DNA of 64,000 nucleotides from Flavobacteriales bacterium (GCA_016712025.1 JADJRW010000024.1:29753-93752); one strand, 5' to 3'. Shown: positions 2,823 through 55,296, numbered from the stretch's first letter. Notes: generated by a model from the sequence alone, not told the origin. Program-made: numbers and translations.

Positions 2823-3659
2823 ATGCGTTCAGTTCTCCTCTCCACCTGTGCTTCGGCGTTCGTGCTGTGCGTGGTTCCCGGTCCATGCTCCGCACAGCGC
2901 ACAGCGGATAGCTCGGTTTACCGCTTGCGCCCATGGGTGGACGGATCTCTGATCGTGGGGTCCGCAGGGCTCATGTTCGCTGGTGCTCGAATACAAGCCG
3001 CGCAGCAGCCATTGGAGGAGACCTTCGTGCTGGCTTTGGATCGGACTTCCATCAACGGTTTCGATCGCTGGGCCACGGATATCGATCTGGAAGGACGCGG
3101 GTCCGCGCGTGCCCGTTCCGATATCCTGCTCTGGACCTCTGCCTGCGCACCCTTCGCACTGCTCTTGGACCATCATGTTCGCGGGGAGTGGAAGCATGTG
3201 CTGCCTCTCTATGCAGAAGCCATGTTCGCGACCAACACGGTACAATCCTGGACCGCGATCGGCGCAGGTCGCGTGCGCCCGATCGCCTATATCGCCGAGG
3301 CGGACATAGAGGACCGCACCGAAGCGAAGAACCGACTTTCCTTCTTCAGCGGGCATGCGTCGAGCACCGCATGCGCCTCCTTCTTCATGGCCCAAGTGCT
3401 TGCCGATATGCACCCCGAGCTGGGTGGTTGGCGTGCGCTGCTCTATGCCGCTGCGCTGGTGCCTCCCGGGTTCACCGGATATTACCGCATTCAAGCGGGC
3501 AAGCACTATCCCACCGATACGCTCGTGGGTATCCTCGTAGGCGGCGCAACAGGGGTGCTCGTTCCTCAATGGCACAAGCGGAAGCGGCCCAATGGGCTGA
3601 CCATCCTGCCCACCACCGTGCCGGGTGGATCGGGAGTGCGTTTGGCCCTGCAGTGGTAA
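2823..3659 (+). CDS. PAP2-family membrane phosphatase
   Basis: Signal peptide MRSVLLSTCASAFVLCVVPGPCSAQ. Acid-phosphatase motifs are present: RVRPIAY (KxxxxxxRP-like), SFFSGHAS (PSGH) and GKHYPTDTLVGILVG (SRxxxxxHxxxD-like). Several TM segments. TAA at 3657-3659. Confidence 0.85.
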   Translation: MRSVLLSTCASAFVLCVVPGPCSAQRTADSSVYRLRPWVDGSLIVGSAGLMFAGARIQAAQQPLEETFVLALDRTSINGFDRWATDIDLEGRGSARARSDILLWTSACAPFALLLDHHVRGEWKHVLPLYAEAMFATNTVQSWTAIGAGRVRPIAYIAEADIEDRTEAKNRLSFFSGHASSTACASFFMAQVLADMHPELGGWRALLYAAALVPPGFTGYYRIQAGKHYPTDTLVGILVGGATGVLVPQWHKRKRPNGLTILPTTVPGGSGVRLALQW

Positions 3660-3742
3660 TGACCTGGTCGCTGGGTGATCCACCTACTTTCGTCCGCAGC
3701 GGAATGAACGTTCCTTCTCCAGTGCTCCGCGGATCATCGGCT

Positions 3743-6700
3743 ATGCGATCGGCTTTGGCAGGTGCTATGCTCTTGCTGGCCCCGCTGTTCAGCATTGCCC
3801 AAGGAGTGCGCCCTACCGACCATGTGCTTTACCTGATCGGCGATGCGGGCGAAGCAGGGGAGGAGCACGGGGCCCCGGTGTTCCGCTTGCTGCGGGAGGT
3901 GGTCGCGGCGGACGCGGCCAAGGAGCGCACGATCCTCTTTCTGGGTGACAACCTCTATCCCGAAGGACTGCACAAAAAGGGGCACCCGCTCCGCGCGCAG
4001 GATGAGGCGAACTTGAACGCGCAGCTGGATGCGGTGCGGGATCTCGATGCGCGAGCGTTGTTCATTCCGGGGAACCATGATTGGAAGCAGGGTGGTAAGT
4101 CAGGATGGAAATATGTACAGCGCGAGGAGCGCTATATCCGTGATACGCTTGGCCGAAAAGCGTTCCTGCCGCATGGCGGGTGCCCCGGCCCCGAGGTGGT
4201 GAAGCTGGGGAACGGTACCGTGCTGGTGGTTTTGGACACGCAGTGGTGGTTGCACCGCTATCGCCGTGCGGAAGGTGAACGCGATGGGTGTGAGGTGGCC
4301 ACGGAGGCCGATCTGCTCGCCGCGCTGAAGAACGTGCTGAACGAATACCGCGACCAACGCATCATCGTGGCCGCCCATCATCCGTTCCTCTCCTACAGCA
4401 GCCATGGCGGCCACTTTCCGTTGCGCACGCATCTCTTCCCTTTCACGGAACTGAACCAGCACCTGTGGATCCCCTTGCCGGTCCTCGGCAGTATTTATCC
4501 TGCGTACCGCGCACTGCTGGGTGATGTGCAGGACGTGGCCCATGCACGCTACAATTCCTTGCGTGCGGGTGTGGAGGCCTTGCTCGAACAATTCCCGGGC
4601 AGCGTGTACGCTTCAGGCCATGAGCACATCCTCCAGTATCTGCAGCGCAATGCGGTACACCATGTGATCAGTGGTGCCGGTTCGCGCACCACCTGGATGA
4701 AGCGTAGCAAGCAGCTGGATTTCGGACGGAGTGAACGCGGTTTCGCACGCCTTGTGATCGCCAAGGACGGTGCGCTCCGGCTCGAGTTCTATACACTGGA
4801 CCACGGTGCGATGCCCGAAGCCGCCTTCAACTTGCAAGGTGTCGAACGCCCGCCCATCACCGTGGATGATAGGCCGGGAGAACCCTTGCCCGATACCATC
4901 ACCGTGGCTCCGAACACCGATCTGCACGCCAGTGCTTTCAAACGCTTCTTCTTCGGATCGCTGTTGCGTGATGTGTGGTGCGCTCCCATCACTGTCCCGG
5001 TGCTGGATCCGGATTCGGCCTTCGGCGGGCTGCGCGCAAAAGCCATGGGTGGTGGTTTCCAGACCCGATCCCTCCGCCTTGATGCCGCCGATGGACATGC
5101 CTATGTGCTGCGCTCCATCCGCAAATACCCGGGTCTTGCGCTCGCCCCCAACCTGCGCGGCACCGTGGCGGAAGATGTGGTGAGCGATGGCATTGCCGCC
5201 AGCCATCCCTATGCGGGTATCGCCATACCGCCACTCGCCGATGCGGTGCATGTGCTCCACACGAACCCGCGTCTTGTGGTGGTGCCCGACCACCCGGCGC
5301 TCGGTGCCTACCGTGGCGTCTTCAGCAATACGCTTTGCCTGCTGGAGGAACGCACCGATGGCGATTGGCGCGGTTCCGCGCAGTTCGGCGGAAGCGAACG
5401 ACTGGCAAGTTCCGGGGAGCTGATCGAAGCGTTGCGCGAAGGCCATGACGACGTGATCGATGTGCCCGCCTTGTTGCGCGCACGCCTGTTGGATATGACC
5501 ATCGGTGATTGGGACCGACACGACGATCAGTGGCGTTGGGCCACTTTCAAGCAAGGCGACCGCACCGTGTACAAGCCGATCCCCCGCGATCGCGACCAAG
5601 CATTCTTCACCCAGAACGGATTGATCCCTTCCCTCACCAACCGGCGCTGGGGGATCAGCAAGTTCCAGGCTTTCGGGCCGGACATACGCGACATCAACGG
5701 ACAGAATTTCAATGCCCGCTACCTGGATCGCGCCTACCTCACCGAGCCCGACCGTGCGCTGTGGCAAGCGATAGCGGACAGCATGCGCACGGAGCTCACC
5801 GATGCGGTGATCGAAGAGGCCATCCATCGCTTTCCTGATACCACTTTCGCTTTGGTGGGTCCGCGCCTTATCGCTGGCTTAAAGGGGCGCCGGGACAAAC
5901 TGCCGAAGATCGCCGAGCGCCACTACCGTGCGCTGGCGAAAAGAGTGAACGTGGTGGGCACCGATGAGGATGAGTTCTTCGAAGTGGTGCGCTTGCCGGA
6001 AGGCCGCACCGAGGTGAACATCTACGACCGCAAGCACGGCAAGAAAGTAGGCAAGCGTCGCTACTTCCACCGTGTGTTCGAGGCACGGGATACACGCGAG
6101 ATCCGGCTTTATGGCCTGGAGGGCCACGACGAGTACCGCGTTAAGGGCGACGTGCGCTCGGCCATCAAAGTGCGCATCATCGGCGGCATGGAGAAGGATG
6201 TGATCCAGGACAGTTCGCGTGTCAGCGGGCCCAGTAAGCGCACCATCGTGTATGAGAGCGGTGGGCTGAAGAAGGGCAACAAATTGCGTCTTGGCCCGGA
6301 GGCTCGCCTAGTGCGCAGTGCTCGCTCGGACGCGTTGGACTACGATCGGACCGAATATGTGCGCGATGTGCTCATGCCGCTTGTTTCCATTGGTCTCAAC
6401 CCGGACGATGGTCTGTTCCTTGGCGGTGGGTTCAGCTACACCAAGCAAGGCTTCAAGGTGGAACCCTACAAATGGCGCCAACGCCTGCTGGCCAGCGTGG
6501 CTTTGCGCACTGGTGCGTACCGTGTGCAATACAGCGGCCGCGTGAACAAGGCCTTCGCCGGGCTCGACGCCGGTGTGGATGCGCGCCTGCTCGCTCCGGA
6601 CTTCAACTTCAATTTCTTCGGGTTCGGTAACCGTACCACCAAACCGGAAGACGAGGAGCAGTTCCAATACCGCATCGACCTGATCGATGTGGAGCCGTTC

Positions 6701-7387
6701 CTTGCCCGAACCTTCGGCGGTTCCCAGGAGCTTCGCCTTACCGGACTCTATCGAAGCGCTTCGCAAGGCCGGTTAAGCCCTGCGCTGGCGGATCGTCCGG
6801 AGCTACGCCCGCAGCCCGATGCGGACTATGCGGGTGCCGCTTTGAGTTATCGCCTCAACAACGTGGACAATGAGGCCGATCCGGAACGCGGCATTCGCTT
6901 CCACGCGGAAGTGGACGAGCTGGTGGAGCTGCATAGTGGCAAGGAAGTGCGGGGCGTCGCCGGTGATCTGCGCTTCTACATTCCTGCACGGATCGTTCCT
7001 GCGCGTACGGTGATCGCCCTGCGCGTGGCCGCTTCCCGGCGCGATGGCGCTATCGATCCCCTGGTGGCCCGCTACCTCGGTGGGCAGAGCGATATGCGCG
7101 GTTTGCGACGCACCCGCTACAGTGGGAACAGCATGGCCGTGGGTAACTTCGAGGTGCGCCAAGACCTCTTCAATTCACGCAACCGGTTGGTGCCGTTCCG
7201 CATGGGTTTGTTGGCTTTCGCCGATGCGGGCCGTGTATGGGTGGACGGACGTGACGAGCATTTCTGGCATAGTTCTGTGGGCGGCGGACTGTTCCTCAGT
7301 CCGTTCAACATGGTGATCCTACAGGCCAGCTACGCGGTGAGCGATGACGATGCCATCGTGGACGTGCGACTTGGCTTCTTCTTCTGA
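3743..7387 (+). CDS. Metallophosphoesterase (calcineurin-like) fused to an Omp85/BamA-like outer-membrane beta-barrel
   Basis: Signal peptide MRSALAGAMLLLAPLFSIAQG. Phosphoesterase motifs LIGDAGE, FLGDNLYPEG, GNHDW, AAHHPF and SGHEH. The C-terminus is beta-rich and ends ...VDVRLGFFF (aromatic terminal residue typical of OMPs). Start is uncertain: in-frame ATGs at 3659 (TAATG overlap with the PAP2 stop), 3704 and 3743. The 2933-3658 part of the ORF overlaps the PAP2 gene and is rejected. Confidence 0.85.
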   Translation: MRSALAGAMLLLAPLFSIAQGVRPTDHVLYLIGDAGEAGEEHGAPVFRLLREVVAADAAKERTILFLGDNLYPEGLHKKGHPLRAQDEANLNAQLDAVRDLDARALFIPGNHDWKQGGKSGWKYVQREERYIRDTLGRKAFLPHGGCPGPEVVKLGNGTVLVVLDTQWWLHRYRRAEGERDGCEVATEADLLAALKNVLNEYRDQRIIVAAHHPFLSYSSHGGHFPLRTHLFPFTELNQHLWIPLPVLGSIYPAYRALLGDVQDVAHARYNSLRAGVEALLEQFPGSVYASGHEHILQYLQRNAVHHVISGAGSRTTWMKRSKQLDFGRSERGFARLVIAKDGALRLEFYTLDHGAMPEAAFNLQGVERPPITVDDRPGEPLPDTITVAPNTDLHASAFKRFFFGSLLRDVWCAPITVPVLDPDSAFGGLRAKAMGGGFQTRSLRLDAADGHAYVLRSIRKYPGLALAPNLRGTVAEDVVSDGIAASHPYAGIAIPPLADAVHVLHTNPRLVVVPDHPALGAYRGVFSNTLCLLEERTDGDWRGSAQFGGSERLASSGELIEALREGHDDVIDVPALLRARLLDMTIGDWDRHDDQWRWATFKQGDRTVYKPIPRDRDQAFFTQNGLIPSLTNRRWGISKFQAFGPDIRDINGQNFNARYLDRAYLTEPDRALWQAIADSMRTELTDAVIEEAIHRFPDTTFALVGPRLIAGLKGRRDKLPKIAERHYRALAKRVNVVGTDEDEFFEVVRLPEGRTEVNIYDRKHGKKVGKRRYFHRVFEARDTREIRLYGLEGHDEYRVKGDVRSAIKVRIIGGMEKDVIQDSSRVSGPSKRTIVYESGGLKKGNKLRLGPEARLVRSARSDALDYDRTEYVRDVLMPLVSIGLNPDDGLFLGGGFSYTKQGFKVEPYKWRQRLLASVALRTGAYRVQYSGRVNKAFAGLDAGVDARLLAPDFNFNFFGFGNRTTKPEDEEQFQYRIDLIDVEPFLARTFGGSQELRLTGLYRSASQGRLSPALADRPELRPQPDADYAGAALSYRLNNVDNEADPERGIRFHAEVDELVELHSGKEVRGVAGDLRFYIPARIVPARTVIALRVAASRRDGAIDPLVARYLGGQSDMRGLRRTRYSGNSMAVGNFEVRQDLFNSRNRLVPFRMGLLAFADAGRVWVDGRDEHFWHSSVGGGLFLSPFNMVILQASYAVSDDDAIVDVRLGFFF

Positions 7388-7395
7388 CCGGTGGC

Positions 7396-8628
7396 CTAGT
7401 GACCGGGCACACCGCTCACGGTAAGCCCTGCCAGGTAGGCTGCCCGGGCGGCGGCGGCCACGGAGAGTACCAGACCGATGGCGAAAATGCTGTAGGTGAG
7501 GTTGAGGTAGCGGTACTTCTTGTGAAGCACCTTCCCTAGGTAGTACAGGTCCTTCGTCATGGAGCCGTACAGGTAGTCGCGATCGTTCATCACCTGCTCC
7601 ATGCCCCACTTGAAGTCGGGGTACTTCATGTTGTGGAAGTTGCCGAAGAACAAAAGGTTGGCGTTGCGTTTCTCGATCTCTTCCCGCGAGGTGTTGCCTT
7701 GCGTGACTTTGGGCCGCGTGGCCAAGGTGGCCGTTACGATGGAGGCCAAGCAAGTGAAGGTGAGCAGCGCCGCAGGCAGCATCAGCAGTTGGTTGTTCTC
7801 CAGTTTCGGGGCCAGGCCGCTCAACACCACCGAGATGATGAGCGCGTTCACGCTGAGCATCATGTTCGCCTTGTTGTCCGCGATCTGGCTCAGCCGGGTG
7901 TGGTTGTTCAACGTAACGCGGAACAAGGTTTCTACACCACGCTCGGTCTCCTTCCGTTTCCGGACGTTCTCCTTCTCTGCGTGTAACGCTTCCTTATCGC
8001 TTTTTTCCGCCTGCTTCTGCTCCGACTTCTTCTCGGCGTGTTCTTCCAGCATGGCTTGCAACGCAGCGAGGTTCTTCTGCCGGGCGGTGTTCCACGACCG
8101 CTTGCCGGCTTCCGAACGGAAGGGCGTGTGTTCCATGAAGGCGACGTTCTCAACGAGCCATTCCTTCTTCTTGATCTTCACGCCGCGCAGTGCTTCGATC
8201 TCCTCGCGAAGTCGCGCCAATTGGGCCAGGTGGTCGGGTCGCGCCAAATGCACCAGGTCCGCGTCGCGGATCATCAACTCCATCGCGCCGCTCACCACCG
8301 CGTCCTTCCGGGTGGCGAGGATCAGCTCCCGCACACGGGCCTTTAGCGCGGCCGTTGCGCCCTTGCTTTCCAGGAATTCTTCCGCTAACTCGGCACTGCG
8401 TGCTTCGTGTCCATCGGCACCCAGGTGGTATGCACTATCGTGGAACCACGCGGCTAACAGCAGCGCATCGCGGTCGTCCGCACCAAGGCTCGCTGCCAGG
8501 GCGAGTTCCCCGGCCGCCTCGGCCACCTGTGCGATGTGGTCGATGTTATGATAGGTCAGGTGGGCCGGGAAGTGGCTGGCCACATGCGCCCGTATGTGGG
8601 CCTCGGCCTGTTGGATCAATTCGCTCAT
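7396..8628 (-). CDS. HD-domain protein with C-terminal PycTM-like (DUF5706, 'Pycsar effector protein' domain) membrane module
   Basis: N-terminal HD domain (YHNIDHIAQV, AAWFHDSAYH, IRDADLVHL), a charged coiled linker (EEHAEKKSEQKQAEKSDKEALHAEKENVRKRKE), then RVTLNNHTRLSQIADNKANMMLSVNALIISVVLSGL plus further TM helices and LLFFGNFHNMKYPDFKWGMEQVMNDRDYLYGSMTKDLYYLGKVLHKKYRYLNLTY. I recognise this as the DUF5706/PycTM pattern. First ATG at 8628 is 5 nt after the cyclase stop (the ORF track starts at TTG 8637). TAG stop at 7396-7398. Confidence 0.85.
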   Translation of the reverse strand: MSELIQQAEAHIRAHVASHFPAHLTYHNIDHIAQVAEAAGELALAASLGADDRDALLLAAWFHDSAYHLGADGHEARSAELAEEFLESKGATAALKARVRELILATRKDAVVSGAMELMIRDADLVHLARPDHLAQLARLREEIEALRGVKIKKKEWLVENVAFMEHTPFRSEAGKRSWNTARQKNLAALQAMLEEHAEKKSEQKQAEKSDKEALHAEKENVRKRKETERGVETLFRVTLNNHTRLSQIADNKANMMLSVNALIISVVLSGLAPKLENNQLLMLPAALLTFTCLASIVTATLATRPKVTQGNTSREEIEKRNANLLFFGNFHNMKYPDFKWGMEQVMNDRDYLYGSMTKDLYYLGKVLHKKYRYLNLTYSIFAIGLVLSVAAAARAAYLAGLTVSGVPGH

Positions 8629-8633
8629 GTGCC

Positions 8634-9587
8634 TCAAACCTCGGTAAAAGTGGACGGACGGTCATGGAGTGGCTCCATGTTTTCCGAGGATCGCTCCACC
8701 GCGTGTATCGCGACATGCTGCTGCTTGCCTTTCAATAGCACACTGCCCAGTTCGATCGTGCGCAGCGGTAGGCTTTCGGTTATGGTACACGCGGCCAGCA
8801 GGGTTTCGCTGATGATCAGTGCGCGTCCCATTTCGTTGCACATGCTCTGTATCCGTGCCGCCGTGTTGATGGTGTCGCCGTGGTAGGCGATCTCGCGCTT
8901 GATCTCGCCGATCTCCACGGCCACCACTTCGCCCAGGTGCAGGCCCGCTTTGAATTCCGGCACCCGGCCATAGGTGGCCAGGTAGTGTTCGGCACGTTGC
9001 GTGATCGCGTCGCAGATGGCGAAGTGGAAGTGCAAGCAGCGCTCTTTGTCGGGCGTGTCGTCCGCGTTCCATGTAAAGACCACCTCGTCGCCCACATATT
9101 GGTAGATCTCGGCACCGTAGGTGGGCACCGCGCTATCCACATCGTGGAAAAGATCGCGCACCATGGAACTATAGCGCTCGGGCCCCAACTCTTCGGCGTG
9201 CCGCGTGCTGGACCTCAGGTCCATGAACATGAAGATGCGCCGCTCGCGCACCGGTTTCTGGTACCGACCCAGCAACAAACTCATCAGCAAACCAGGCCCG
9301 AAGCTGCGGTTCACCTGTTTGATGAAGGAGATGAGGAAGTTGCCCGCCAAAGTGGTTGGTACGAAGGTGAGCCCCCAGCGGAAGCTCACCTCGGCGCTCA
9401 TTTCCATGCCCAAGCGCGCGAACCAATCGGCCATGAGCAGGTTGAACGCCGTTAGGGTGATCGTGGAAATAACCACGAAGGTCACCGTGTAGAGCAGCGA
9501 CTTGACCAGGATGCGCCGACCCATGGAGGCGCCGGGGCCTAAACGGCGGTCCACCCAGAGATCCCATGAACGCCAGCGCGGTGCCAT
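8634..9587 (-). CDS. Class III adenylate/guanylate-type nucleotidyl cyclase, membrane-anchored (catalytic part intact)
   Basis: Cyclase homology-domain motifs: RRIFMFMDLRSSTRHAEELG (metal Asp), YQYVGDEVVFTW (second Asp), AGLHLGEVV, YHGDTINTAARIQS (Asn/Arg transition-state pair). TM helices precede the domain. The N-terminus probably continues in another frame up to 9819. Confidence 0.85.
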   Translation of the reverse strand: MAPRWRSWDLWVDRRLGPGASMGRRILVKSLLYTVTFVVISTITLTAFNLLMADWFARLGMEMSAEVSFRWGLTFVPTTLAGNFLISFIKQVNRSFGPGLLMSLLLGRYQKPVRERRIFMFMDLRSSTRHAEELGPERYSSMVRDLFHDVDSAVPTYGAEIYQYVGDEVVFTWNADDTPDKERCLHFHFAICDAITQRAEHYLATYGRVPEFKAGLHLGEVVAVEIGEIKREIAYHGDTINTAARIQSMCNEMGRALIISETLLAACTITESLPLRTIELGSVLLKGKQQHVAIHAVERSSENMEPLHDRPSTFTEV

Positions 9588-9819
9588 AGAATATACCGGT
9601 GAGCGAGCTGAGGCAGAGCACGGACAACAGCGGTGGGGGTTGTATCCGTGTGTAAGTGACGGATACCGCGACCAGAACCAAATGGCTGATCACGACCAGG
9701 ATCGCATTGACGACGATCCAGAAGTTCACCTGGGTGATCACCGCGGCCCACACCGGGTGCCTGTAGGCGAAGCGCGTGGCAAAGGAGCGGTAGTGCGCGG
9801 GGGAACGGTCCGTGCCCAT
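9553..9819 (-). pseudogene. Probable N-terminal membrane segment of the cyclase, encoded in a different frame (frame break near 9555-9565)
   Basis: ATG at 9819. MGTDRSPAHYRSFATRFAYRHPVWAAVITQVNFWIVVNAILVVISHLVLVAVSVTYTRIQPPPLLSVLCLSSLTGIFYGTALAFMGS reads as 2-3 TM helices. The frame then degenerates into low-complexity text, while the cyclase frame becomes TM-like (WDLWVDRRLG...ILVKSLLYTVTFVVISTITL). Confidence 0.5.
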
Positions 9820-9852: not shown

Positions 9853-12093
9853 TCAGAGCACCACCAACCGGCTCGCTACGGTACCATCCACCGATAGCAC
9901 GCGCAGGATGTAGGTCCCTGCGTTCACACCACGCAGGTCCAGTAGCAGACCGGTGGGGCCCACCATGTTGGTGCGCCATGCACGAACGGTCCTGCCCGGC
10001 GCATCGATCATTTCGATCCTTGCATTCTCCCGAACGTGTGTCATGCTGATGCGCACTTCGTCGCTCGTCGGATTCGGGTAGAGGACCAGGCCCGGTACGT
10101 CCGTCTCGCTTTCCAATACGGATACCACGGCGACACATGCGCACTCCGCGTTCCAATAGGTGTCCATGGTCAAAGGATCTTCATCATCGCAGGGTGCTCC
10201 GGGCAGTGCGGAGCCGCCCGGCATGTCCGCGCAATCCAAGCCTTCGCAAATGCACAGTGCGTTCCATTGATCGTTGGTGGTGACCAGGATGCCATCATCG
10301 CACGTCGTGCCAGGAAGCGCACTTCCGCCGACGTCGCCAAGGCAGTCGCTGGTGAACGTGCCGGCGCAGAGACAGGCCAAGGTCCACACGTCGTCAACGG
10401 TATTGTCTAGCCCGTCATCGCATGGGCTTCCTGGTTGTGCATCCCCGGCGGGAACGCCAAGACAATCCGTGGGGATGAAGATGCCGAGGCATTCACAGGC
10501 AGTGCTCCAGGTGTCGTCGATCGTGTTGGGGTCGTCATCATCGCAAGGGGTACCCGGCAGGTTGGAACCGCCCACAACGCCAAGGCAATCGGCGATCTGG
10601 CCAACACAAATGCAATCGAACGACCAATATTCAGCGCTCGTGTTCGGATCCCCGTCATCACAGGGTTGCCCCCAAACGTCCGGGCCGCCCGGCACACCGA
10701 GACAATCGATCATGGCGCCGTAGCAGCTGCACCAAATGTTCCACACGTCGTTGCCGGTGTTCGCGTTGTTGTCATCGCACGGGGTGCCGGGTTGTGCGCT
10801 CCCGCCCACCGCGCCCAGACAATCCGTGGCGAGAATACCGAAGCACTGGCAGGCGCTGTTGTAAACATCGTCCGCGCTATCTGGGTTGCCATCGTTGCAC
10901 GGTGTGCCGGGCAACGCGGCACCACCGGGAACGGATTGGCAATCGAGCGGAAGGCCGATGCAGATGCAATTGGCGTTGAACGCATCATTGCCCGTGTCAG
11001 GATCCAGATCATCGCAGGCGCTGCCGGGTTGTGTGCTCCCGCCCACTACACCCGGGCAATCCGTGGCGAGAACACCGAAGCACTGGCAATCACCGTTGTA
11101 CACATCGCCGGTGCTGTCGGGATTGCCATCATCGCACGCCGTACCCGGTTGTGCGGGTCCTCCGAGCGTGCCGGTGCAATCGGTCGGGAGGGTGCCGTAG
11201 CACTGGCAGTTCGCGCTCCAGGTATCGTTCGTGCTGTTCCAGTTCCCATCATCGCACGCGGTGCCGGGCAATGCTGTGCCGTCCGGTGTGTCTGCACAAT
11301 CCAGTGGCAGACCGGCACATGTGCAGTTCACATCCCAAAGGTCGTTCCCTGTTGATGCGTCGCCGTCATCGCACGCGGTACCGGGCTGCGCGGACCCTTC
11401 TGGCTCGCCCTCGCAATCGATGGCCAATTGGCCCAGGCAAACGCAGTTCGCATTGAAGAGATCGTTCGCGGTGTTCGCGTTGCCGTCATCGCAAGGGGTA
11501 CCGGGCAAGGCCGCACCACCCACCTGACCCATGCAGTCCTCGGTGCAGGGTTCAGTGGAGAGGATAAGGTCGTAGGACCCGGATCCGCCGGGAAGTATCT
11601 CGGGGATCGGTAGGTAGTAGGTGCCTGGCGGCAGGTTCACGAAGGTCGTCTAGGGCACCCACAGTTGGTCCAGTTCCAGGCCGCAACTGGGCATGTTGAG
11701 ATCGGTAGCCACTGCGATGGAATCGGGATCGTACGGGCAGTTGGTGGCCATGAACGGAAGCGCACCGTTCCACGAACCCTGCATCGCGCAGAAACTCACT
11801 CGAACGGTCGCGCAAACCGGGATGGTGAACGCCTCCCACACAAGCGGGAACGCGGCTCCTTCACTGTTCGTAGCGCCCGCGTTGCTGCCGTTCAAGAATA
11901 CGCTCCCGGGGACGGAGAGCGCGTTCACGGTCGCATCCGCACATTCATCATTGGCCGGACCGCCACCTTCCTCCAATGATGGGGATGCCTCATACGCGGT
12001 GCTCGAACCCCACGCATCGTGCGGGCCGCAGAAGAGCAGTGCGGCGGTCCCGAGCGGGAGCCAAAAGGAATGGAGCGGGATAATGGATCGCAT
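9853..12093 (-). pseudogene. T9SS-sorted secreted protein: one N-terminal 'NDxC...GTYY' module plus 12 tandem 4-Cys repeats, interrupted by an in-frame TAG at 11650-11652
   Basis: ORFs 11650..12258 and 9853..11640 are in the same frame and read ...CGLELDQLWVP*TTFVNLPPGTYYLPIP. Signal peptide MRSIIPLHSFWLPLGTAALLFCGPHDAWG starts at 12093. The downstream piece has only a GTG start and no signal peptide, but it carries the T9SS tail (LVLYPNPTSDEVRISM...GTYILRVLSVDG). Confidence 0.8.
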
Positions 12094-26929: not shown

Positions 26930-28844
26930 CGAGCGGGCCGATGCCACAGCGGATACCGCTGCGCGGATCACCGTGCTGGAAGAGGGGCTTGACGCCATGC
27001 CCCGCGAAGGCGCCGCGCACTGTGAACGCGAACTGCTGGTGGAATTGGCCGAGCTGCATGCAGGCACAGGCCGCACCGAAAGGCTGATCAGCGTATGCGA
27101 AGCCGCCATCCGGCCGGGTATGGGGCTGGATGCCGAACAGACCGCCCGTTTGAAAATGAAACTGGCACGGGCCTATTTCCAGGCAGGCCTGCCCCGTTCG
27201 TTCGATCTGGCCAAGGATGTGTTCCTCTACCTGGAGGAGATGAACGTGCGCAGCGACCGCATGCTGGAGGCCACGGACCTGCTGGTGAACACCTACGACC
27301 TGACCGGGGAGCTCACCGAGTGCCGCAAATTGTTGAGCGAGGCGCTGAAGAAGGCCGAAGCGGAAAGGGACATTCGTTGGACCACCGATCTGCTCGATCG
27401 TCTAGGCGTCTTGGCGGTGAAGCAGGGCGACGGCAAAGCGGCGGTGGCCTTGCACGAACGCTCGTTGACGGAACTCGCGCGCTTCTTTCGGAACGGTGCG
27501 GTGCGCGATACGCTGGTGCGCCATGTGCAACAGCGGCAGCGCCAGGCGAGCAATGGTCTCACCACGAGCACCGACACGCTCACGGAACTGCTCACCGAAC
27601 GGCAGTATCTGGTCATGCGCCACCGCGCGCTGAAGCTCTTGGGTGATGCGCAACGCGCCTCCCATGCGGACGAGCGCGCTGCGCGGGCTTACCTCGAAGC
27701 ATCGGCCATGGCGGCCACCGCGCACATCCCGGAACTGGTGCCGTCCTTCACCGAATTGGGGGAGATACGCGTCGCGCAGGGCGATCCCCGAGAAGCCGCG
27801 CGCCTCGGCGAACAAGGCCATGCGGATGCATTGCAACGCCGTGATATGGTCCGCGCGCAACGCGCCGCAAAACTGCTCTACCAAGCGTACAAAGCACAGG
27901 GCGATGCGGTGAAGGCGCTGCACATGTTCGAACTCCAGGGCCAGTATTCCGATTCCCTGAACAACGAAAGTTTTCGCATGGGCCTCCTAAAGAACCAGGT
28001 GACCTACGAGGTGCGCGATGACAGTTTGCGTATGTCGCTCGCCATCGTCGAAGGGCAACGCGACACCGCCTTCGCGCGGGCCGAAGCCCGCACCAATCGC
28101 AACCGGGCGCTTATGGTGGGTGGTGTGGCCGTGTTGCTCCTCATCGGCGGTGGGCTTTGGTGGCGCACCGATCGCAAACGCCGCAAGGAGCGCTTCGAGA
28201 AGGATGCTGCCCGCCTGGAGACCCAAGCTCTCCGTAGCCAGATGAACCCCCACTTCATCTTCAACGCGCTGAACTCGATCAATGCCTATGTTCAGAAGAA
28301 CGACCAGGACAGCGCCAGCAGCTACCTCACGAAGTTCGCGCGGGTGATGCGCAGCGTACTGGAGAACAGCCGCCATGCGGAAGTGCCGCTGGTGCAGGAC
28401 TTGGAAACGCTGCGCGGCTACATGGACCTCGAGCGCAAGCGCATGCAGGACAAGTTCGATTTCACCATCACGGTGGACGATGCGCTGGATCCCGAGGAGG
28501 TGATGGTGCCACCACTGGTAGTACAGCCCTTTGTGGAGAACGCCATCTGGCACGGCATGGCCGGCAAGGAGGGCAAAGGCCACATCAGCTTGCGGGTCGA
28601 GCAACAGGGCAAGCAACTGCTTTGGATCATCGAGGACGATGGAGTGGGGCGGCAGGCGAAGAAGGAACCGGTAGCACAGCCGGTGGAAGGGGCCACGAAG
28701 AAAACCAGCCTTGGTACAGCGATCACCCGAAGTCGCTTGGACCTGGTGCAGAAACAATACGGCGGCAAAGCCGGCTTCCGCTACGTGGATCGACCGATCG
28801 GCACGCGCGTGGAAGTGGACATGCCCATGCATTTGCAACATTGA
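26829..28844 (+). CDS. TPR-type sensor + single TM + LytS/YehU-type histidine kinase (His_kinase + HATPase_c)
   Basis: About 440-aa helical-repeat sensor, then TM ALMVGGVAVLLLIGGGLWW followed by RTDRKRRKERFEK. LRSQMNPHFIFNALNSINAYV is the signature of LytS-type kinases. VQPFVENAIWHG and IIEDDGVG form the ATPase. No upstream in-frame extension is possible because of TGA at 26769-26771. Confidence 0.85.
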   Translation: MGLFGCGTDDATSDEAASAAALPAACATLVRETIERADATADTAARITVLEEGLDAMPREGAAHCERELLVELAELHAGTGRTERLISVCEAAIRPGMGLDAEQTARLKMKLARAYFQAGLPRSFDLAKDVFLYLEEMNVRSDRMLEATDLLVNTYDLTGELTECRKLLSEALKKAEAERDIRWTTDLLDRLGVLAVKQGDGKAAVALHERSLTELARFFRNGAVRDTLVRHVQQRQRQASNGLTTSTDTLTELLTERQYLVMRHRALKLLGDAQRASHADERAARAYLEASAMAATAHIPELVPSFTELGEIRVAQGDPREAARLGEQGHADALQRRDMVRAQRAAKLLYQAYKAQGDAVKALHMFELQGQYSDSLNNESFRMGLLKNQVTYEVRDDSLRMSLAIVEGQRDTAFARAEARTNRNRALMVGGVAVLLLIGGGLWWRTDRKRRKERFEKDAARLETQALRSQMNPHFIFNALNSINAYVQKNDQDSASSYLTKFARVMRSVLENSRHAEVPLVQDLETLRGYMDLERKRMQDKFDFTITVDDALDPEEVMVPPLVVQPFVENAIWHGMAGKEGKGHISLRVEQQGKQLLWIIEDDGVGRQAKKEPVAQPVEGATKKTSLGTAITRSRLDLVQKQYGGKAGFRYVDRPIGTRVEVDMPMHLQH

Positions 28845-28849
28845 TACCG

Positions 28850-31800
28850 ATGCGCCCCATCCCTTTCATCCTTCTTTTTTGTTCCGCTCTGCTCATAGGT
28901 TGCGGTGAGGACCAGGCATCTGGAAGATCGGACGAGGGTGACCAAAAAACCTCGAAATGCGCCAAGCGTGTGCGTGCGATCCTCGAGGAAGCCGACGCCA
29001 CAAGGGATACCACCGCGCGGATCGCCGTCTTGGAAGCCGGGCTCGCGACAATGCCTCGCAAGGGGAGTGCGCATTGTGAACGTGAACTGCTTGTGGAACT
29101 TGCTGAACTGCACGCGGGAACAGGTCGTACCGAGCGATTGATCAGTGTTTGCGAAGCGGCCATCCGACCGGAAATGGGCTTGGACCCGGAGCAGACGGCC
29201 CGGCTGAAAATGAAGTTGGCGCGCGCCTATTTCCAGGCCGGCCTGCCGCGATCGTTCGATCTGGCCAAAGATGTGTTCTTGTACCTGGAGGAGATGAACG
29301 TGCGCAGCGATCGCATGCTGGACGCCACCGAACTGCTGGTACACACCTACGAACTGACGGGCGAGTTGACGGAGTGCCGCACCTTGCTCACCGAGGCGCT
29401 GGCGAAAGCGGAGCAGGAGCGTGACATCCGCTGGACGTGTGACCTGCTTGACCGGCTGGGCACCTTGGCGGAGAAGCAAGGGGATGCGGCCGGTGGTGTA
29501 GCGTTGCACCAGCGTGCGCTGAGGGAGTTGGAGCGTTTCTTCCGGCATGGGGCGGTGCGCGACACGTTGGTGCGACGCGTGCAAGTGAGACAACGCGAGG
29601 GGAGCGCTGGGCGGACCACCAGCACCGACACGCTCACCGAACTGCTCACCGAACGACACTATCTGGTGATGCGGCACCGGGCGCTGCGTTCCCTGGGCGA
29701 TGGCTTCAGCGCGATGCACGTCTTGGACAGCGCCGCCGCCGCCTACACCGCAGCGCTATCCTTGGGCGCCACAGCGCACATCGCGGAGCTTCCCGCTCCC
29801 TACGCCGAGCTTGGTGAAGTGCGGCTCTTGCAAGGGAAGGCTTCAGAGTCGGTCCAGTTGGGAGAGCAAGCGCTGGCCATGGCGCGCGCGGCGCACGATG
29901 CTGCTCGTGCGAAGCGGGCTACCCAACTGCTCTACCGCGCCTACAAGGCCACGGGCCAGCCAGCCCAAGCCTTGCGCATGTTCGAACTCACGGGCCAGTA
30001 TTCGGATTCGCTCAATAACGAAAGCTTCAGGATGGGCCTGCTGAAGAACCAGGTGACGTACGAAGTGCGGGACGATAGTCTGCGCATGTCCTTGCAAGTG
30101 GCCGAAGGGCAGCGCGATGCGGCTGTGGCCCGCACCGAAGCCCGCACCAACCGCAACCGTGCGCTGCTTTTCGGCGGTGCCGCACTTCTACTGTTGCTCG
30201 GGGGTGCGGTCCTCCTGCTCGTAATGCGCGGTCGTCAGCGCAAGAAGGAATTGGTGCGGCAGCAAGAGATCAACGAGCGCCTTCAGCACATCGACAAACT
30301 GAAGGACCAGTTCCTGGCCAATACGAGCCACGAGCTCCGCACCCCGCTCAACGGCATCATCGGTCTGAGCGAATCGCTCTACGATGGCGTGGCCGGGGAG
30401 CCCACCGAAGCGATGCGCGAAGACCTTTCCATGATCATTTCCTCGGGCAAGCGCCTCTCGGGATTGATCAACGATATCCTGGACCTCTCCAAGCTGCGCG
30501 AGAAGGACATCGTCCTGGCCCGCAAACCGATCGATCTGCGCAGCGTGGTGGAAGTTGATCTGCGCATCACCGCACCGATGGTGGAAGGCAAGGAGATCCA
30601 ACTCATGAACGCGGTGGCCAGAGACCTGGTGCGTGTGGATGCGGACGAAGACCGGCTGCAGCAGATCCTGCTCAACCTGCTCGGCAACGCGATCAAATTC
30701 ACAGAGCGGGGCACCGTGACCGTTACTGCGCAAGAACGCGATGGCATGGTCGCGGTCTCCATCACCGATACCGGGATCGGTATACCGCAGGACAAGCTCC
30801 GGTCCATCTTCGTTGCCTTCGACCAGGCGGATGGAACCGCGCAGCGCCAGCACGGCGGAACCGGGCTTGGGCTTTCCATCACCAAGCAGCTCGTGGAACT
30901 GCACGGAGGCACCATTAACGTCGAAAGCGAGCTGGGCAAGGGCTCGGTATTCACCTTCACCTTACCTGCCACGCAGGCCGAAGCGGAGCCCATGCGGTTG
31001 AGCACCGCCTTGATGCGCGTTCGCAACGTGGCCGATACCGTCGCGCCGGTGCAAGTGGTGCACGCCCAAAAGGACGGCGCCTTCCACGTGCTCATCGTGG
31101 ACGATGAAGTGGTGAACCGCAAGGTGCTGGTGAACTATCTGGCCGATGCTCCCTTCGAGATCCATCAGGCTGCGAGCGGACCGGAGGCGCTCGCGCTTTT
31201 GGAGAAGACACCGCTGGATGTGGTGCTGCTCGATGTGATGATGCCGGGCATGAGCGGCTATGAGACCTGCCAACGTATCCGGGAGAAATACCTCAGCAGT
31301 GAACTTCCCGTGATCATGCTCACGGCCAAGGACCAGGTGAACGATCTGGTGGAAGGGTTCAACACCGGCGCGAACGACTACCTGATCAAACCAGTGAACC
31401 GCAATGAGCTGATGGCACGGCTCAAGACGCACTTGAATCTGCTCAAGATCAACAATTCTTACAGCCGCTTCGTACCTCGCGATTTCCTGCGCTCCCTCGG
31501 CAAGGAGAACATCATCGATGTGAAGCTCGGCGACCAGATCAAGGACGACATCACCGTTATGTTCAGTGATATCCGTGGGTACACCACCCTGAGCGAATCC
31601 ATGACGGTCGATGAGAATTTCCGCTTCCTCAACGCCTTCATGGGGCATGTGGGACCTGTGATCCAGAAGCACCACGGCTTCGTGAACCAGTTCCTCGGCG
31701 ATGGCCTGATGACCCTGTTCCAGCGCCACCCGGAGGATTGCCTACGCGGCTCGTTGGAGATGCATGCCACCGTAGCGGAATACAACAAGAGCCGCGCGGC

Positions 31801-52537: not shown

Positions 52538-55247
52538 CTAGCGCTTCGCCGACCGCCCCTTGCTCGCGGATCTCTGGCGACGGTGCAGACCCATCAGGTA
52601 GGCATGGAAGGCGAGCTTGCTATGTATGGCCGCCTCCTCTTTCTCGCGCGGAACGTAGGCGTTCCGCTGGTCCGCGTCGATCGACCTGGCCTTGACACGG
52701 TCCCGCCATTGCAGGTCCAGAAAGCGATGCACTTGGGCACGCAACTCTTCATCCTCCAGCGGAAAGGCGTCTCCACACGGCGGTCGAGATTGCGCTCCAT
52801 CAGGTCCGCACTGGCGAGATAGGTGGTCATACGGCCCCGGTCATGGAACAGGTACACGCGGGCGTGTTCCAAGTAGCGGTCCACGATACTGATGGCCCGC
52901 ACGCGGTCGCTCACGTTCGGAAGACCAGGCACCAGGCAACAGATGCCGCGCAGAATGAGTTGCACCTCCACCCCGGCCCGGCTGGCGTCATAGAGCTTGT
53001 GGATCATGCTGGTGTCCTCCAGACTGTTGAGCTTGAAGACGATGCGCGCCGGACGCCCCTTCAAGGCCTGCTCGATCTCGCGGTCGATCATTTCCTCCAA
53101 TCTGCTGCGTAGATCGATCGGGGCCATCAGCAGATGGCGCAACGCGGGCACATGGCGCCGGTCCATCAAATAGGAGAACACCTCCTGCACCTCGCGCGTG
53201 ATCGCCGCCTGGGCGGTAAGCAGCCCCACGTCAGAATACACCTGGGCTGTGCGTTCGTTGAAGTTCCCAGTGCCTAGGTAGGCGTAGCGCCGCAGCCGAC
53301 CGCCCTCCGAACGTTGAACAAGGCACAGTTTGCCATGCACTTTGAGCCCCTCATAGCTGTAAAGCACTTTGGCTCCCGCCTTCTCCAGGGCCTCGCCCCA
53401 GTAAAGGTTGGAGCGTTCATCGAAACGTGCTTGCACTTCCACGAACACCGTGATCTGCTTGCCGTTGCGCAAGGCTTCCAGCAGGGCTTGGCAGATCAAC
53501 GATCCATACGCCACCCGGTAGAGGGTGATGGCGATCGAGCGCACCGCCCTATCCTTCGCGGCCTGCTGGAGCCACCGCACCAACAGGCCGAAATCGTGGT
53601 AAGGGAAGTGAAGCAATTGGTCGCTGTCCGAGACCGCTCGGAACAGGTCCTTCCGCCCGGTCAAGCCGGGATGCGGTACCATGGCCAATGGCTTGTCCCG
53701 CAGATCGGGACGTTCCTTCACCGGCAAATTGAGCAGATCGCTGAAGTTGTGATATCGCCCACCGGGCACTACGTCCGGCGGACGCAGGCCGAGGAAGGCG
53801 ATGATCGCTTTCAGCAGGGGCTTCGGCATGGCCTGGTCGAACAGGAAACGGGAGGGCATCCCCGTCTGCCGCTTACGCAGGCTCTTGCGCACCTTGTCCA
53901 CCACCTTGCCTGTGAACTCCTCCTCTAAGTAGAGATCAGCATCGCGCGAGAGTTTGATGGCATGCACGGAGATCATGCGGTGGCCTTTGAACGTGCGGTG
54001 CAGGCAAAGGCGGAGCACGTCATCCAGGAACATGAGTTCGTTGCGGCCTCGGGCCGAAGGGAGTTGCACGAACCGCCCCAGTTCCTCGCTGGGTACGTTC
54101 ACCACCACGCGTTTCTCCTTGCGCGAGCCCTTGGGTCGCAGGCGCAGACCAAGTACAGACGCCGATCCTCCACGAAGAGGGCATTGCCCGGACGCATCGT
54201 GGCCGTGGTCAACAACGGTTCCACCCGTTCGTGGTAGAACTCCTTCGCGAAGGCCTCCTGTTTCGCGGACAATTGTGTCTCGTTGATGATACGGATGCCT
54301 TGCCGTGCCAGGGCCGGCAGCAATTTGCCGCGATAGAGCGCGCCGAATTCCTGCAGCTGTCCTAGCGCTTTCGCGTTGATCCGTGCCACCAGCCGGTCCG
54401 GGGTGATGCCCAATGCTGTGCGGTCGTGCTTCCCCAACTTCACGAGCGACCGCAGGGAGGCCACGCGCACTCGGTAGAACTCATCGAGGTTGCTGGAGTA
54501 GATGGCCAGGAACTTGATGCGCTCCAACAACGGCACATGCTCGTCCTGGGCTTCCTGCAATACCCGGTCGTTGAACGAAAGCCAGCTCAGATCGCGATCG
54601 AACAAAGGCCACTTCCCCGGCTTGGGCACCTTCTCGTTCTTCAACTGGCCGCCCACGCGCAACTTGGGCCGTTTGAGGTTGATCGCCTTCTGCGGCCCGA
54701 AACGGCTCCGGGCGTAGGCGGTGTGGAACTGGTGCGCGGTGAGGTACGCCAGGTTCTCGTGCGACCAATCCGTTTTCTTGATCGCCTTGCCATGCACCAA
54801 CTGTAGTTCGATACGCAGCCGTTCCGCACGCGCCTCGAAATCCACCTGGCCGGCCTTGGCCGAATCGGCATCGCGCAATACGCGCTGTAGTATTCCGCGC
54901 GGGGTGGCACCAAGGCGCGTGCTGTTGATCGTCGCGCTCACCCGCTCACGGTCCCGTGTTGCGAATTTGGCTTGACGCAGGAACCCACGCGCGATCCGCG
55001 CGCTCTCTTTTTCGTGGCCCGCATAGGCCTGCGCGTACCCCGCATCGTGGAAAAGCGCCGCTATCTCCAGGAGCAGCAGGTCGCGGACCGATAGCTTCAT
55101 CGCACGGCCGATCTCCAGTGCCGTGCGTGTTACGGAGAGCGTGTGGTCCAGGTCGTGGAAGACGAATTCCGGGGGTATCGCTTTGCTGAAATGGCGACGG
55201 ATGAACAACCGCGCGCTCTCCAGGGTCGCCTCGTTCGCCTTCCTCAT
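52538..55247 (-). pseudogene. ppk1: Polyphosphate kinase 1 with an about 215-aa N-terminal HD-domain extension; two frame breaks (near 54150 and near 52770)
   Basis: HD part: VFHDLDHTLSV, ALFHDAGYAQ and LRDADSAKAG. PPK1 N-domain: DLSWLSFNDRVLQEAQDEHVPLLERIKFLAIYSSNLDEFYRVRVASLR. The middle and C-terminal domains lie in ORF 52594..54108 (VVVNVPSEELGRFVQLP...YLGTGNFNERTAQVYSDVGL...SADLMERNLDRRVE). The tail FPLEDEELRAQVHRFLDLQWRDRVKARSIDADQRNAYV lies in ORF 52538..52744. Confidence 0.85.
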
Positions 55248-55296
55248 CGCGTGGCAAAGTAAGTGCCCGGCCCGGCCTGGCACGGGGACAGCCTTC

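Follow-up and report, generated by a model that had tools for sequence, protein, structure and literature searches.

A class III cyclase paired with an HD phosphohydrolase on a Pycsar-type membrane module in Flavobacteriales: a candidate housekeeping signaling operon

The Pycsar defense system consists of a cyclase, PycC, and an effector, PycTM (Tal et al., 2021, as outlined in PMC11224242). Pucsar, composed of PucC and PucTM, has been presented as a cGMP offshoot of Pycsar; in the same account EcPucTM is reported as a hexameric cylindrical assembly, and PycTM is termed a "pJV1-spdB3 family 3TM" protein, after a Streptomyces plasmid-spread protein (10.64898/2026.08.12.744502). That protein, SpdB3, is a non-defense member of the family (10.64898/2026.08.12.744502; PMC4447253). 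Since the family is named after it, the module with three transmembrane (TM) helices is not confined to defense. We describe here a two-gene locus in 64,000 nucleotides (nt) of DNA from a Flavobacteriales bacterium (GCA_016712025.1, JADJRW010000024.1:29753-93752), referred to below as the window, in which a class III cyclase gene precedes a gene for an HD domain protein ending in a PycTM-type module (HD-PycTM). A preliminary description made from the DNA alone took the two for a Pycsar-like defense pair, with a housekeeping circuit built from the same parts as its fallback, and it is the fallback that the evidence favors. On balance, the pair is probably a chromosomal, vertically inherited housekeeping operon for cyclic nucleotide monophosphate (cNMP) signaling that is specific to one deep clade of Flavobacteriales, and not a Pycsar defense system.

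The two genes are co-directional and 5 nt apart, as had been recognized before; both are on the minus strand, which had been left unstated. The TGA of the cyclase occupies 8636-8634 and the ATG of HD-PycTM 8628-8626, and the peptide motifs that were quoted earlier are all present. The parts of the pair, with lengths in amino acids (aa), are as follows.

8634..9819, minus strand: cyclase gene, 394 aa after correction of a 1-nt indel; N-terminal 4-TM domain, then a cytoplasmic catalytic domain.
8718..9233, minus strand: catalytic domain of the cyclase (PF00211, E 6.5e-13).
8629..8633, minus strand: spacer of 5 nt that separates the stop codon of the cyclase from the start codon of HD-PycTM.
7396..8628, minus strand: HD-PycTM gene, whose product of 410 aa (counted from the ATG) has a cytoplasmic HD domain, then a long charged helix and a 3-TM PycTM-type module.
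8095..8628, minus strand: HD phosphohydrolase domain, aa 1-178, of the YedJ-like subtype, with the motifs YHNxxH, WFHD, GHE, ILAT and DADLxH.
7879..8094, minus strand: Lys/Glu-rich helical linker, aa 179-250, placed from the translation and a structural model; it leads straight into TM1.
7396..7878, minus strand: PycTM-type 3-TM module, placed from PF18967, PADLOC profiles, invariant columns, hydropathy and charge.

The resemblance to Pycsar and Pucsar is real. A class III-fold cyclase stands beside a pJV1-spdB3/PycTM-type 3-TM gene in a tight operon, in the window and in orthologous loci alike. The C-terminal module had been assigned to DUF5706/PycTM, and PF18967 matches HD-PycTM residues 275-385 with an E-value of 5.8e-34 and a score of 117.1 bits, the cut-off being 27.2. 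In PADLOC, the profiles of PycTM and of the "2TM effector" of CBASS match residues ~237-392 (E 1.6e-16 to 1e-8), the best PycTM match covering profile positions 13-146 of 160. The TM helices lie at 256-274, 281-299 and 375-393, and the stretch inserted between TM2 and TM3 carries the invariant motifs NLLFFGNF and DLYxLGxVLxxKY. The positive-inside distribution of charge predicts that the N-terminus, and hence the HD domain, as well as this conserved insert, are cytoplasmic; the module thus has the three helices and predicted cytosolic TM2-TM3 insert of the pJV1-spdB3 family. In the AlphaFold model, which has a mean predicted local distance difference test (pLDDT) score of 86, residues 1-170 form a compact, all-helical HD domain and DSSP assigns one continuous helix to residues 173-276, whose charged part is modeled at a lower pLDDT of 68-80. 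It had also been proposed that such effectors normally sense through a cyclic nucleotide-binding domain. This holds for PycTIR, but the profiles that PADLOC has for PycTM run to only 154-165 positions, and residues 237-392 of HD-PycTM account for almost the whole of them. That no CAP-type domain is present therefore does not, taken alone, set HD-PycTM apart from effectors of the PycTM type. What does distinguish HD-PycTM from the effectors of Pycsar and Pucsar is the 178-aa HD domain with its catalytic residues, and the long charged helix, ahead of the 3-TM module.

A second difference lies in distribution. The HD-PycTM family of inner-membrane proteins returned at least 2377 matches, named at NCBI "Pycsar system effector family protein", "phosphohydrolase" or "HD domain-containing protein", and when each GTDB species was represented by a single genome, the scan gave at least 579 confirmed relatives. 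Neighborhoods were counted in the best 80 of these at least 579 representative loci, drawn from 80 different genomes and 36-43% identical to the window protein. These 80 belong to Flavobacteriales, Cytophagales, Chitinophagales, Saprospiraceae and Ignavibacteria, with one copy per locus. Among the matches listed there was no member of Bacteroidales, an order whose early genomes were reported to be devoid of cyclases (PMC1183210). By tblastn, none of the 80 has a cyclase adjacent to HD-PycTM, and two have a weak, distant class III match 5-9 kb away, so that the preferential association with class III cyclases, proposed earlier as a check, was not found. The neighbor-joining (NJ) tree of the proteins tracks taxonomy, with the cyclase-linked loci forming one clade, sister to the other Flavobacteriales. 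GC content is flat across the locus (0.59-0.63), no tRNA or integrase was found near it, and 2.9 million viral contigs yielded no HD-PycTM relative. Recent horizontal acquisition was rejected on these observations, and the patchy, mobile, island-like distribution typical of defense systems is not seen. On plasmids, tblastn with the PycTM module found three copies only, on Cytophagales megaplasmids and belonging to the HD-PycTM family itself; no canonical short PycTM effector was found there.

Within the window clade, the cyclase is always directly upstream of HD-PycTM. This arrangement was found in about six lineages, all of one deep Flavobacteriales clade, in which identity to the window ranges over 48-75% for HD-PycTM and 49-66% for the cyclase. 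About seven further pairs are suggested by HD-PycTM and cyclase matches whose longest contigs are equal in length. The loci in which the pair was found are listed here by locus number.

L001-L003 and L097: HD-PycTM 75% and cyclase 66% identical to the window; gap of 6-10 nt.
L004: HD-PycTM 50% identical; overlap of 4 nt.
L086/L087 and L088: HD-PycTM 48% identical; overlap of 4 nt; two tandem cyclase paralogues.
L093/L094: HD-PycTM 52% identical; gap of 32 nt.

The tight coupling reported for the window is thus conserved in one clade, with orthologous junctions of -4 nt (an ATGA overlap) and of +6 to +32 nt, and the two proteins are probably co-translated. The pair-bearing loci have syntenic flanks, which include an RND pump, a 163-aa SpoT-type HD protein, a PAP2 phosphatase and a metallophosphoesterase-Omp85 protein (Metallophos-Omp85). 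Tandem 4-TM cyclase paralogues are found upstream of HD-PycTM in L086 (5663-8004) and L088 (5715-8004). The window cyclase is the orthologue of the HD-proximal member of the tandem, the only one kept; heterodimeric cyclases are a possible meaning of the tandem arrangement.

The cyclase has the features of a class III enzyme: a PF00211 match and, invariant in an alignment of 20 family members, the metal-binding residues D200 and D244 and the transition-state residues N318 and R322. Its TM segments are at 35-53, 64-82, 103-121 and ~149-169, and a conserved juxtamembrane GPG...GRY stretch connects them to the catalytic domain. The 4-TM domain has no Pfam family, the match to DUF6404 being weak, and NCBIfam has no model for either the cyclase or HD-PycTM. 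The mycobacterial cyclase Rv1625c is a membrane-anchored class III enzyme with six TM helices. Like Rv1625c and the photoactivated cyclases OaPAC and bPAC, the window protein has a polytopic or sensor domain at the N-terminus and, after it, one catalytic domain, which has to dimerize and in which the two Asp, the Asn and the Arg are intact. In class III cyclases the canonical base-specifying pairs are Lys with Asp or Thr for ATP and Glu with Cys or Ser for GTP. Here, unlike in Rv1625c, OaPAC and bPAC, these positions are Q240 and A311, which align with the Lys and Thr of OaPAC and are invariant across the Bacteroidota family. At positions D-2 and D+3 around the second metal-binding Asp the cyclase has Val and Val; the matching positions of AnPycC hold the bulky K104 and F109 (PMC11224242).

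In sequence the cyclase is nearer to photoactivated adenylyl cyclases than to PycC. The best PDB sequence matches were OaPAC and bPAC (E 1.7e-10), and no PycC structure was among the PDB matches at E<=0.01. The PADLOC PycC profiles matched weakly and partially, at 39.5 bits. Homologues of the 4-TM cyclase that are unlinked to HD-PycTM score 25-28 bits on the same profiles, and the matches are therefore taken as general class III similarity. The 4-TM family, of housekeeping type, has 4755 relatives, many of them in Pedobacter and Algoriphagus; the copy in Pedobacter gandavensis stands alone, with no HD-PycTM neighbor. The family alignment retrieved 80 metagenomic cyclase loci, and in 53 of them the downstream sequence extends for 1.2 kb or more; HD-PycTM is present in one of the 80, L097, whose cyclase is 66% identical to that of the window, and the family is unlinked in the other 79. 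By its 4-TM N-terminus, its linkage, its profile scores and its PDB matches, the cyclase probably falls outside the PycC/PucC immune clade of soluble enzymes that stand alone or are fused to AGS-C.

These results bear directly on a role in abortive infection, in which a phage would activate the cyclase, the cNMP would open or assemble the PycTM module to damage the membrane, and the HD domain would be the sensor or an off-switch. The homology of the 3-TM module is genuine, the operon is tight, the cyclase does have a weak PycC-profile match, and some Pycsar-1 loci, according to a preprint, have their cyclases in tandem, as do some relatives of this locus. In addition, the cyclase-linked clade has distinctly longer NJ branches than other Flavobacteriales HD-PycTM proteins, which could stem from composition (high GC) or from accelerated evolution. 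All of this is outweighed, in our judgment, by an effector family with a phylum-wide range, a single copy per locus and a tree that follows taxonomy; by a locus that is syntenic, of ordinary composition and identical in three metagenome-assembled genomes (MAGs) of one species; by a membrane-anchored cyclase from a family otherwise unlinked to HD-PycTM; and by the fact that HD-PycTM proteins with no cyclase neighbor score just as well on the PycTM profiles. A defense function is consequently very improbable.

The earlier statement that an intact cyclase follows a polytopic N-terminus is right as to the catalytic core and the membrane part, but the gene is not a single open reading frame (ORF) in the assembly, a 1-nt indel having been overlooked. 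The assembled gene consists of two ORFs in different frames, 9819-9169, which holds the N-terminal TM part and of which the first 85 codons are used, and 9587-8634, which holds the rest. Another gene in the window, for PPK1, is split in the same manner.

9563..9565, minus strand: homopolymer with a 1-nt insertion, CCC on the plus strand and GGG on the coding strand, which splits the cyclase frame.
52594..55283, minus strand: PPK1 gene, encoding an HD domain at the N-terminus; a homopolymer indel of 1 nt near 54099-54108 (GACCC|AAGGG) divides it into two ORFs.

Removal of one base from the CCC run yields a 394-aa protein collinear with the intact orthologues of 397 aa (L001:4801-5994) and 401 aa (L004:4799-6004). 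If the shift were genuine, the cyclase would be a pseudogene in this genome and HD-PycTM alone would be functional. The insertion, as assembled, does divide the ORF after TM2, and an internal ATG at 9587 would give a truncated protein without two of the TM helices. On the other hand, the indel is in a homopolymer, and downstream of it the cyclase is 60-68% identical to its orthologues with no further stops or degradation. In the sister species the cyclase is split in one of three MAGs (L003) and intact in L001 and L002, although the HD-PycTM proteins of all three are identical. Since the housekeeping gene PPK1 is broken likewise at a homopolymer and only one of the three sister MAGs has the split, the frameshift is probably an assembly error, and loss of the cyclase from this genome is quite unlikely.

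The HD assignment of the window protein rests on its family, because its own match to PF01966 is below threshold (17.3 bits against 22, E 0.006). Of the Pfam matches anticipated earlier, PF00211 and PF18967 were thus obtained directly, and PF01966 at the level of the family, where 17 of 18 HD domains match it. H27, H31, H63, D64, H74, E75, D122, D124 and H127, with all metal-binding and catalytic residues among them, are invariant in 25 HD-PycTM homologues, which places the domain in the YedJ-like branch of the HD superfamily with its H...HD...D constellation. A profile of the domain matched the PDB entries 2pq7, 3b57, 3dto, 2qgs and 3gw7 (YedJ) with E-values of 1e-8 to 7e-5, and cGMP and cAMP phosphodiesterases (PDEs) at E ~0.05. 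The solved YedJ-like proteins (3gw7, E. coli YedJ; 3b57, Lin1889; 2pq7; 3dto; 2qgs; 2pjq) share the HD fold with the pattern H...H...HD...(H)E...T...D, at E 1e-8 and TM-scores of 0.6-0.73; unlike HD-PycTM they are soluble, stand-alone proteins, and they are uncharacterized. A single-sequence search of PDB with the whole of HD-PycTM had returned noise only (BAG, catenin), the HD profile alone being informative.

The motifs YHNxxH, (W)FHD, GHE, ILAT and DADL run parallel to what we take to be the class I PDE signature, as in PDE4D. Of the 18 family HD domains, four match PF00233 (PDEase_I), the best at 5e-5, and one matches domain III of Ppx-GppA; the window protein does not match PF00233. With an HD-only model (pLDDT 95.6) the top Foldseek matches were 3b57, 2pq7, 2pjq and PDE4D, and nothing reached E<=1e-3; PDE4D and PDE5 were matched, across this run and that with the full-length model, at E 3e-3 to 1e-2, with a query TM-score (TMq) of 0.55 and a root-mean-square deviation (rmsd) of 7-8 Å. 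The HD-only model was used in a rerun because PDE entries had dominated at weak E-values with the full-length model, partly through the long helices. Class I PDEs (PF00233, PDE4D, PDE5) have a catalytic domain of ~320 aa with extra subdomains, and their similarity to the HD domain is at superfamily level only. Membership of class I was accordingly rejected in favor of a resemblance of active-site motifs.

More support for a role in cNMP turnover came from proteins in which this HD subtype is joined to a cyclase. A word-indexed homologue search with the HD domain of the window PPK1 gave only six relatives, mostly fragments, and among homologues found from this seed was a cyclase-HD fusion. An exhaustive phmmer search with the fusion matched 3802 representatives, and for 561 the match reached E<=1e-30; most are proteins of 1200-1300 aa in which the match is C-terminal. 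The four fusions that were scanned all have Reg_prop/Y_Y_Y sensors, Guanylate_cyc and HD, and the 36 sampled align over both domains, with the adenine-specifying K777 and D849 invariant. Members P0247-P0396 of this large Bacteroidota family consist of Reg_prop beta-propellers, Y_Y_Y, a canonical (K/D) adenylate cyclase and a C-terminal HD domain. By hhalign, the HD domains of HD-PycTM and of the fusions are the same subtype (probability 99.8%, E 1.3e-29, 178 columns), and in fusions such as P0247, P0255 and P0306 (~1200-1300 aa) the likeness includes a helical extension at the C-terminus (W...NF...HxYFT). Both settings couple this HD subtype physically to a class III cyclase: in the fusions within one polypeptide, with a K/D cyclase and no PycTM, and here from separate genes, with Q/A in the cyclase and the HD domain mounted on a 3-TM module. 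Independent support for a built-in phosphodiesterase, as had been suggested for the HD domain, comes from the adenylate cyclase-HD fusions and from the PF00233 matches. Because the motifs parallel those of class I PDEs and the same subtype is fused C-terminally to canonical adenylate cyclases, we tentatively propose that the HD domain is a cNMP phosphodiesterase, an assignment that is plausible but stops a little short of probable.

In the housekeeping operon that we favor, the conserved 4-TM domain of the cyclase would detect a cue in the membrane or periplasm, the enzyme would make a 3',5'-cNMP, the HD domain would hydrolyze this product and so end the signal, and the 3-TM module would tether and oligomerize the HD domain at the membrane beside the cyclase. 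Outside the window clade, the HD-3TM protein would work with no dedicated cyclase next to it. It is also conceivable, though unlikely, that the PycTM-type module is itself cNMP-responsive, the protein then being a non-lethal, cNMP-gated membrane device with its own HD phosphodiesterase as off-switch, fed directly, in the window clade, by the dedicated 4-TM sensor cyclase of the operon. HD-PycTM would then be a housekeeping relative, and possibly the evolutionary source, of the membrane effectors of Pycsar, Pucsar and CBASS.

The neighborhoods of HD-PycTM outside the window clade point in another direction. The commonest neighbor is a ~1200-aa Metallophos-Omp85 protein, found within 10 kb in 57 of the 80 representative loci, across Flavobacteriales, Cytophagales and Chitinophagales. 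A calcineurin-like metallophosphoesterase domain forms its N-terminal part and an Omp85-type barrel its C-terminal part (for example L014 6326-9835 and L012 6364-9975). In Flavobacterium johnsoniae, too, the orthologue of HD-PycTM adjoins such a gene. Over the representative and window-clade loci together, it is divergent from HD-PycTM in 47, convergent in 8 and co-directional in 4, and in 35 it is within 300 nt. In the window the two genes are convergent with an 8-nt gap.

3704..7387, plus strand: metallophosphoesterase with an Omp85-type outer-membrane protein, ~1227 aa (PF00149; NF047779 Omp85_fam, E 8e-24).

PPK1 recurs as well. The HD domain that had been noticed at 54600-55247 is indeed the N-terminal domain of the window PPK1; it is of the YedJ-like subtype shared with HD-PycTM (PF01966 E 1e-9, 31% identity). 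Elsewhere, PPK1 follows HD-PycTM on the same strand in five loci, with gaps of 60 nt to 1.8 kb.

L091 8001-11197: PPK1 directly downstream of HD-PycTM.
L092 2328-5524: PPK1 directly downstream.
L010 2335-5408: PPK1 directly downstream.
L025 2076-5784: PPK1 directly downstream.
L083 10001-14850: PPK1 1.8 kb downstream.

The lineages concerned are two Ignavibacteria, one Chitinophagales and one that is Flavobacteriales-like. Where HD-PycTM identity has fallen to 46% (protein P0034), no cyclase is left, and the gene downstream of HD-PycTM is that for PPK1. The five loci and the HD-PPK1 fusion hint at a link to polyphosphate.

Adjacency may then reflect co-expression only. HD-PycTM would be a protein of the envelope or of phosphate metabolism, for example of polyphosphate, that works with Metallophos-Omp85, PPK1 or both; its HD domain would act on a non-cyclic phosphoester, the 3-TM module would be an oligomeric anchor, and the cyclase would have been inserted upstream in one clade with no direct part in signaling. 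Besides the neighbors just described, one may cite for this the Ppx-GppA match of one HD domain, the presence of the non-defense SpdB3 in the 3-TM family, and the lack of a cyclase neighbor in all 80 representative loci. Such an account has difficulty with the stop-start overlap or near-abutment that is kept down to ~48% protein identity, with the fusion of this HD subtype to adenylate cyclases in hundreds of representatives, and with the cNMP activation of the characterized 3-TM relatives; and its polyphosphate component comes from five loci and one fusion. We give it a real but clearly smaller probability than the housekeeping cNMP operon.

Several observations count against that operon. Most HD-PycTM genes have no nearby cyclase. 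The cyclase would be a pseudogene in this genome if the frameshift is real, and since its specificity pair is the non-canonical Q/A, neither its substrate nor the base of its product can be predicted from sequence. The PDE matches of the HD domain are at superfamily level only, by Foldseek as by profile, and its closest solved relatives (YedJ, Lin1889, 2pq7) are uncharacterized as to substrate. Finally, the HD-PPK1 fusion, the five PPK1 loci and the prevalence of Metallophos-Omp85 mean that the substrate of the HD domain could be polyphosphate or another phosphoester.

What is new here is a putative module for cNMP synthesis and turnover in which a Pycsar-type membrane module carries the hydrolase. 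Both the HD-PycTM and the cyclase proteins are already in databases; no analysis of them was found in the literature, and the searches turned up no paper on the HD-PycTM fusion, DUF5706, the cyclase-HD fusion family or the HD-PPK1 fusion. In Bacteroidota, genes by the thousand bear the name "Pycsar system effector family protein". Given such naming, and in the window clade an adjoining cyclase that weakly matches PycC profiles, defense-finding pipelines could miscall a conserved housekeeping operon as Pycsar. Signaling by cNMPs is little studied in Bacteroidota, and this HD subtype, found on a Pycsar-type module, on hundreds of sensor adenylate cyclases and on PPK1, is a testable candidate for the cNMP phosphodiesterase of the phylum. 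A vertically inherited, non-defense protein built on the 3-TM module of Pycsar and CBASS also offers a handle on the origin of the immune effectors and on what the module does when it does not kill.

Other features of the surroundings may be recorded. A scan of the locus for promoters and terminators found 0 sigma-70-like sites, a scan that does not cover Bacteroidota promoters. Upstream of the cyclase, 9853-11640 on the minus strand encodes a 595-aa protein sorted by the type IX secretion system (T9SS; Por_Secre_tail), with ~12 Cys-rich repeats (...PGTxCDDGNxxTxxDxxxxxCxC...). A gap of 33 nt separates its end from the start of the cyclase, so the two may share a transcript. In 54 Flavobacteriaceae loci a ~794-aa protein is convergent with HD-PycTM at a median gap of 5 nt (for example L015 11234-13618, minus strand); nothing in Pfam, NCBIfam or PDB matches it, the window lacks it, and it is treated as local synteny.

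On the plus strand of the window, 2282-2770 encodes the 163-aa RelA/SpoT-type HD protein (TIGR00691, E 1e-7), possibly a small alarmone hydrolase, and it is followed by the PAP2 phosphatase at 2823-3656, also on the plus strand. The SpoT-type protein is 97% identical to its L001 orthologue, compared with 74% for PAP2, 75% for HD-PycTM and 66% for the cyclase. Another class III cyclase in the window, at 28622-32317 on the plus strand, is a 1231-aa hybrid with TPR, HisKA, HATPase_c, receiver, Guanylate_cyc and C-terminal TPR domains.

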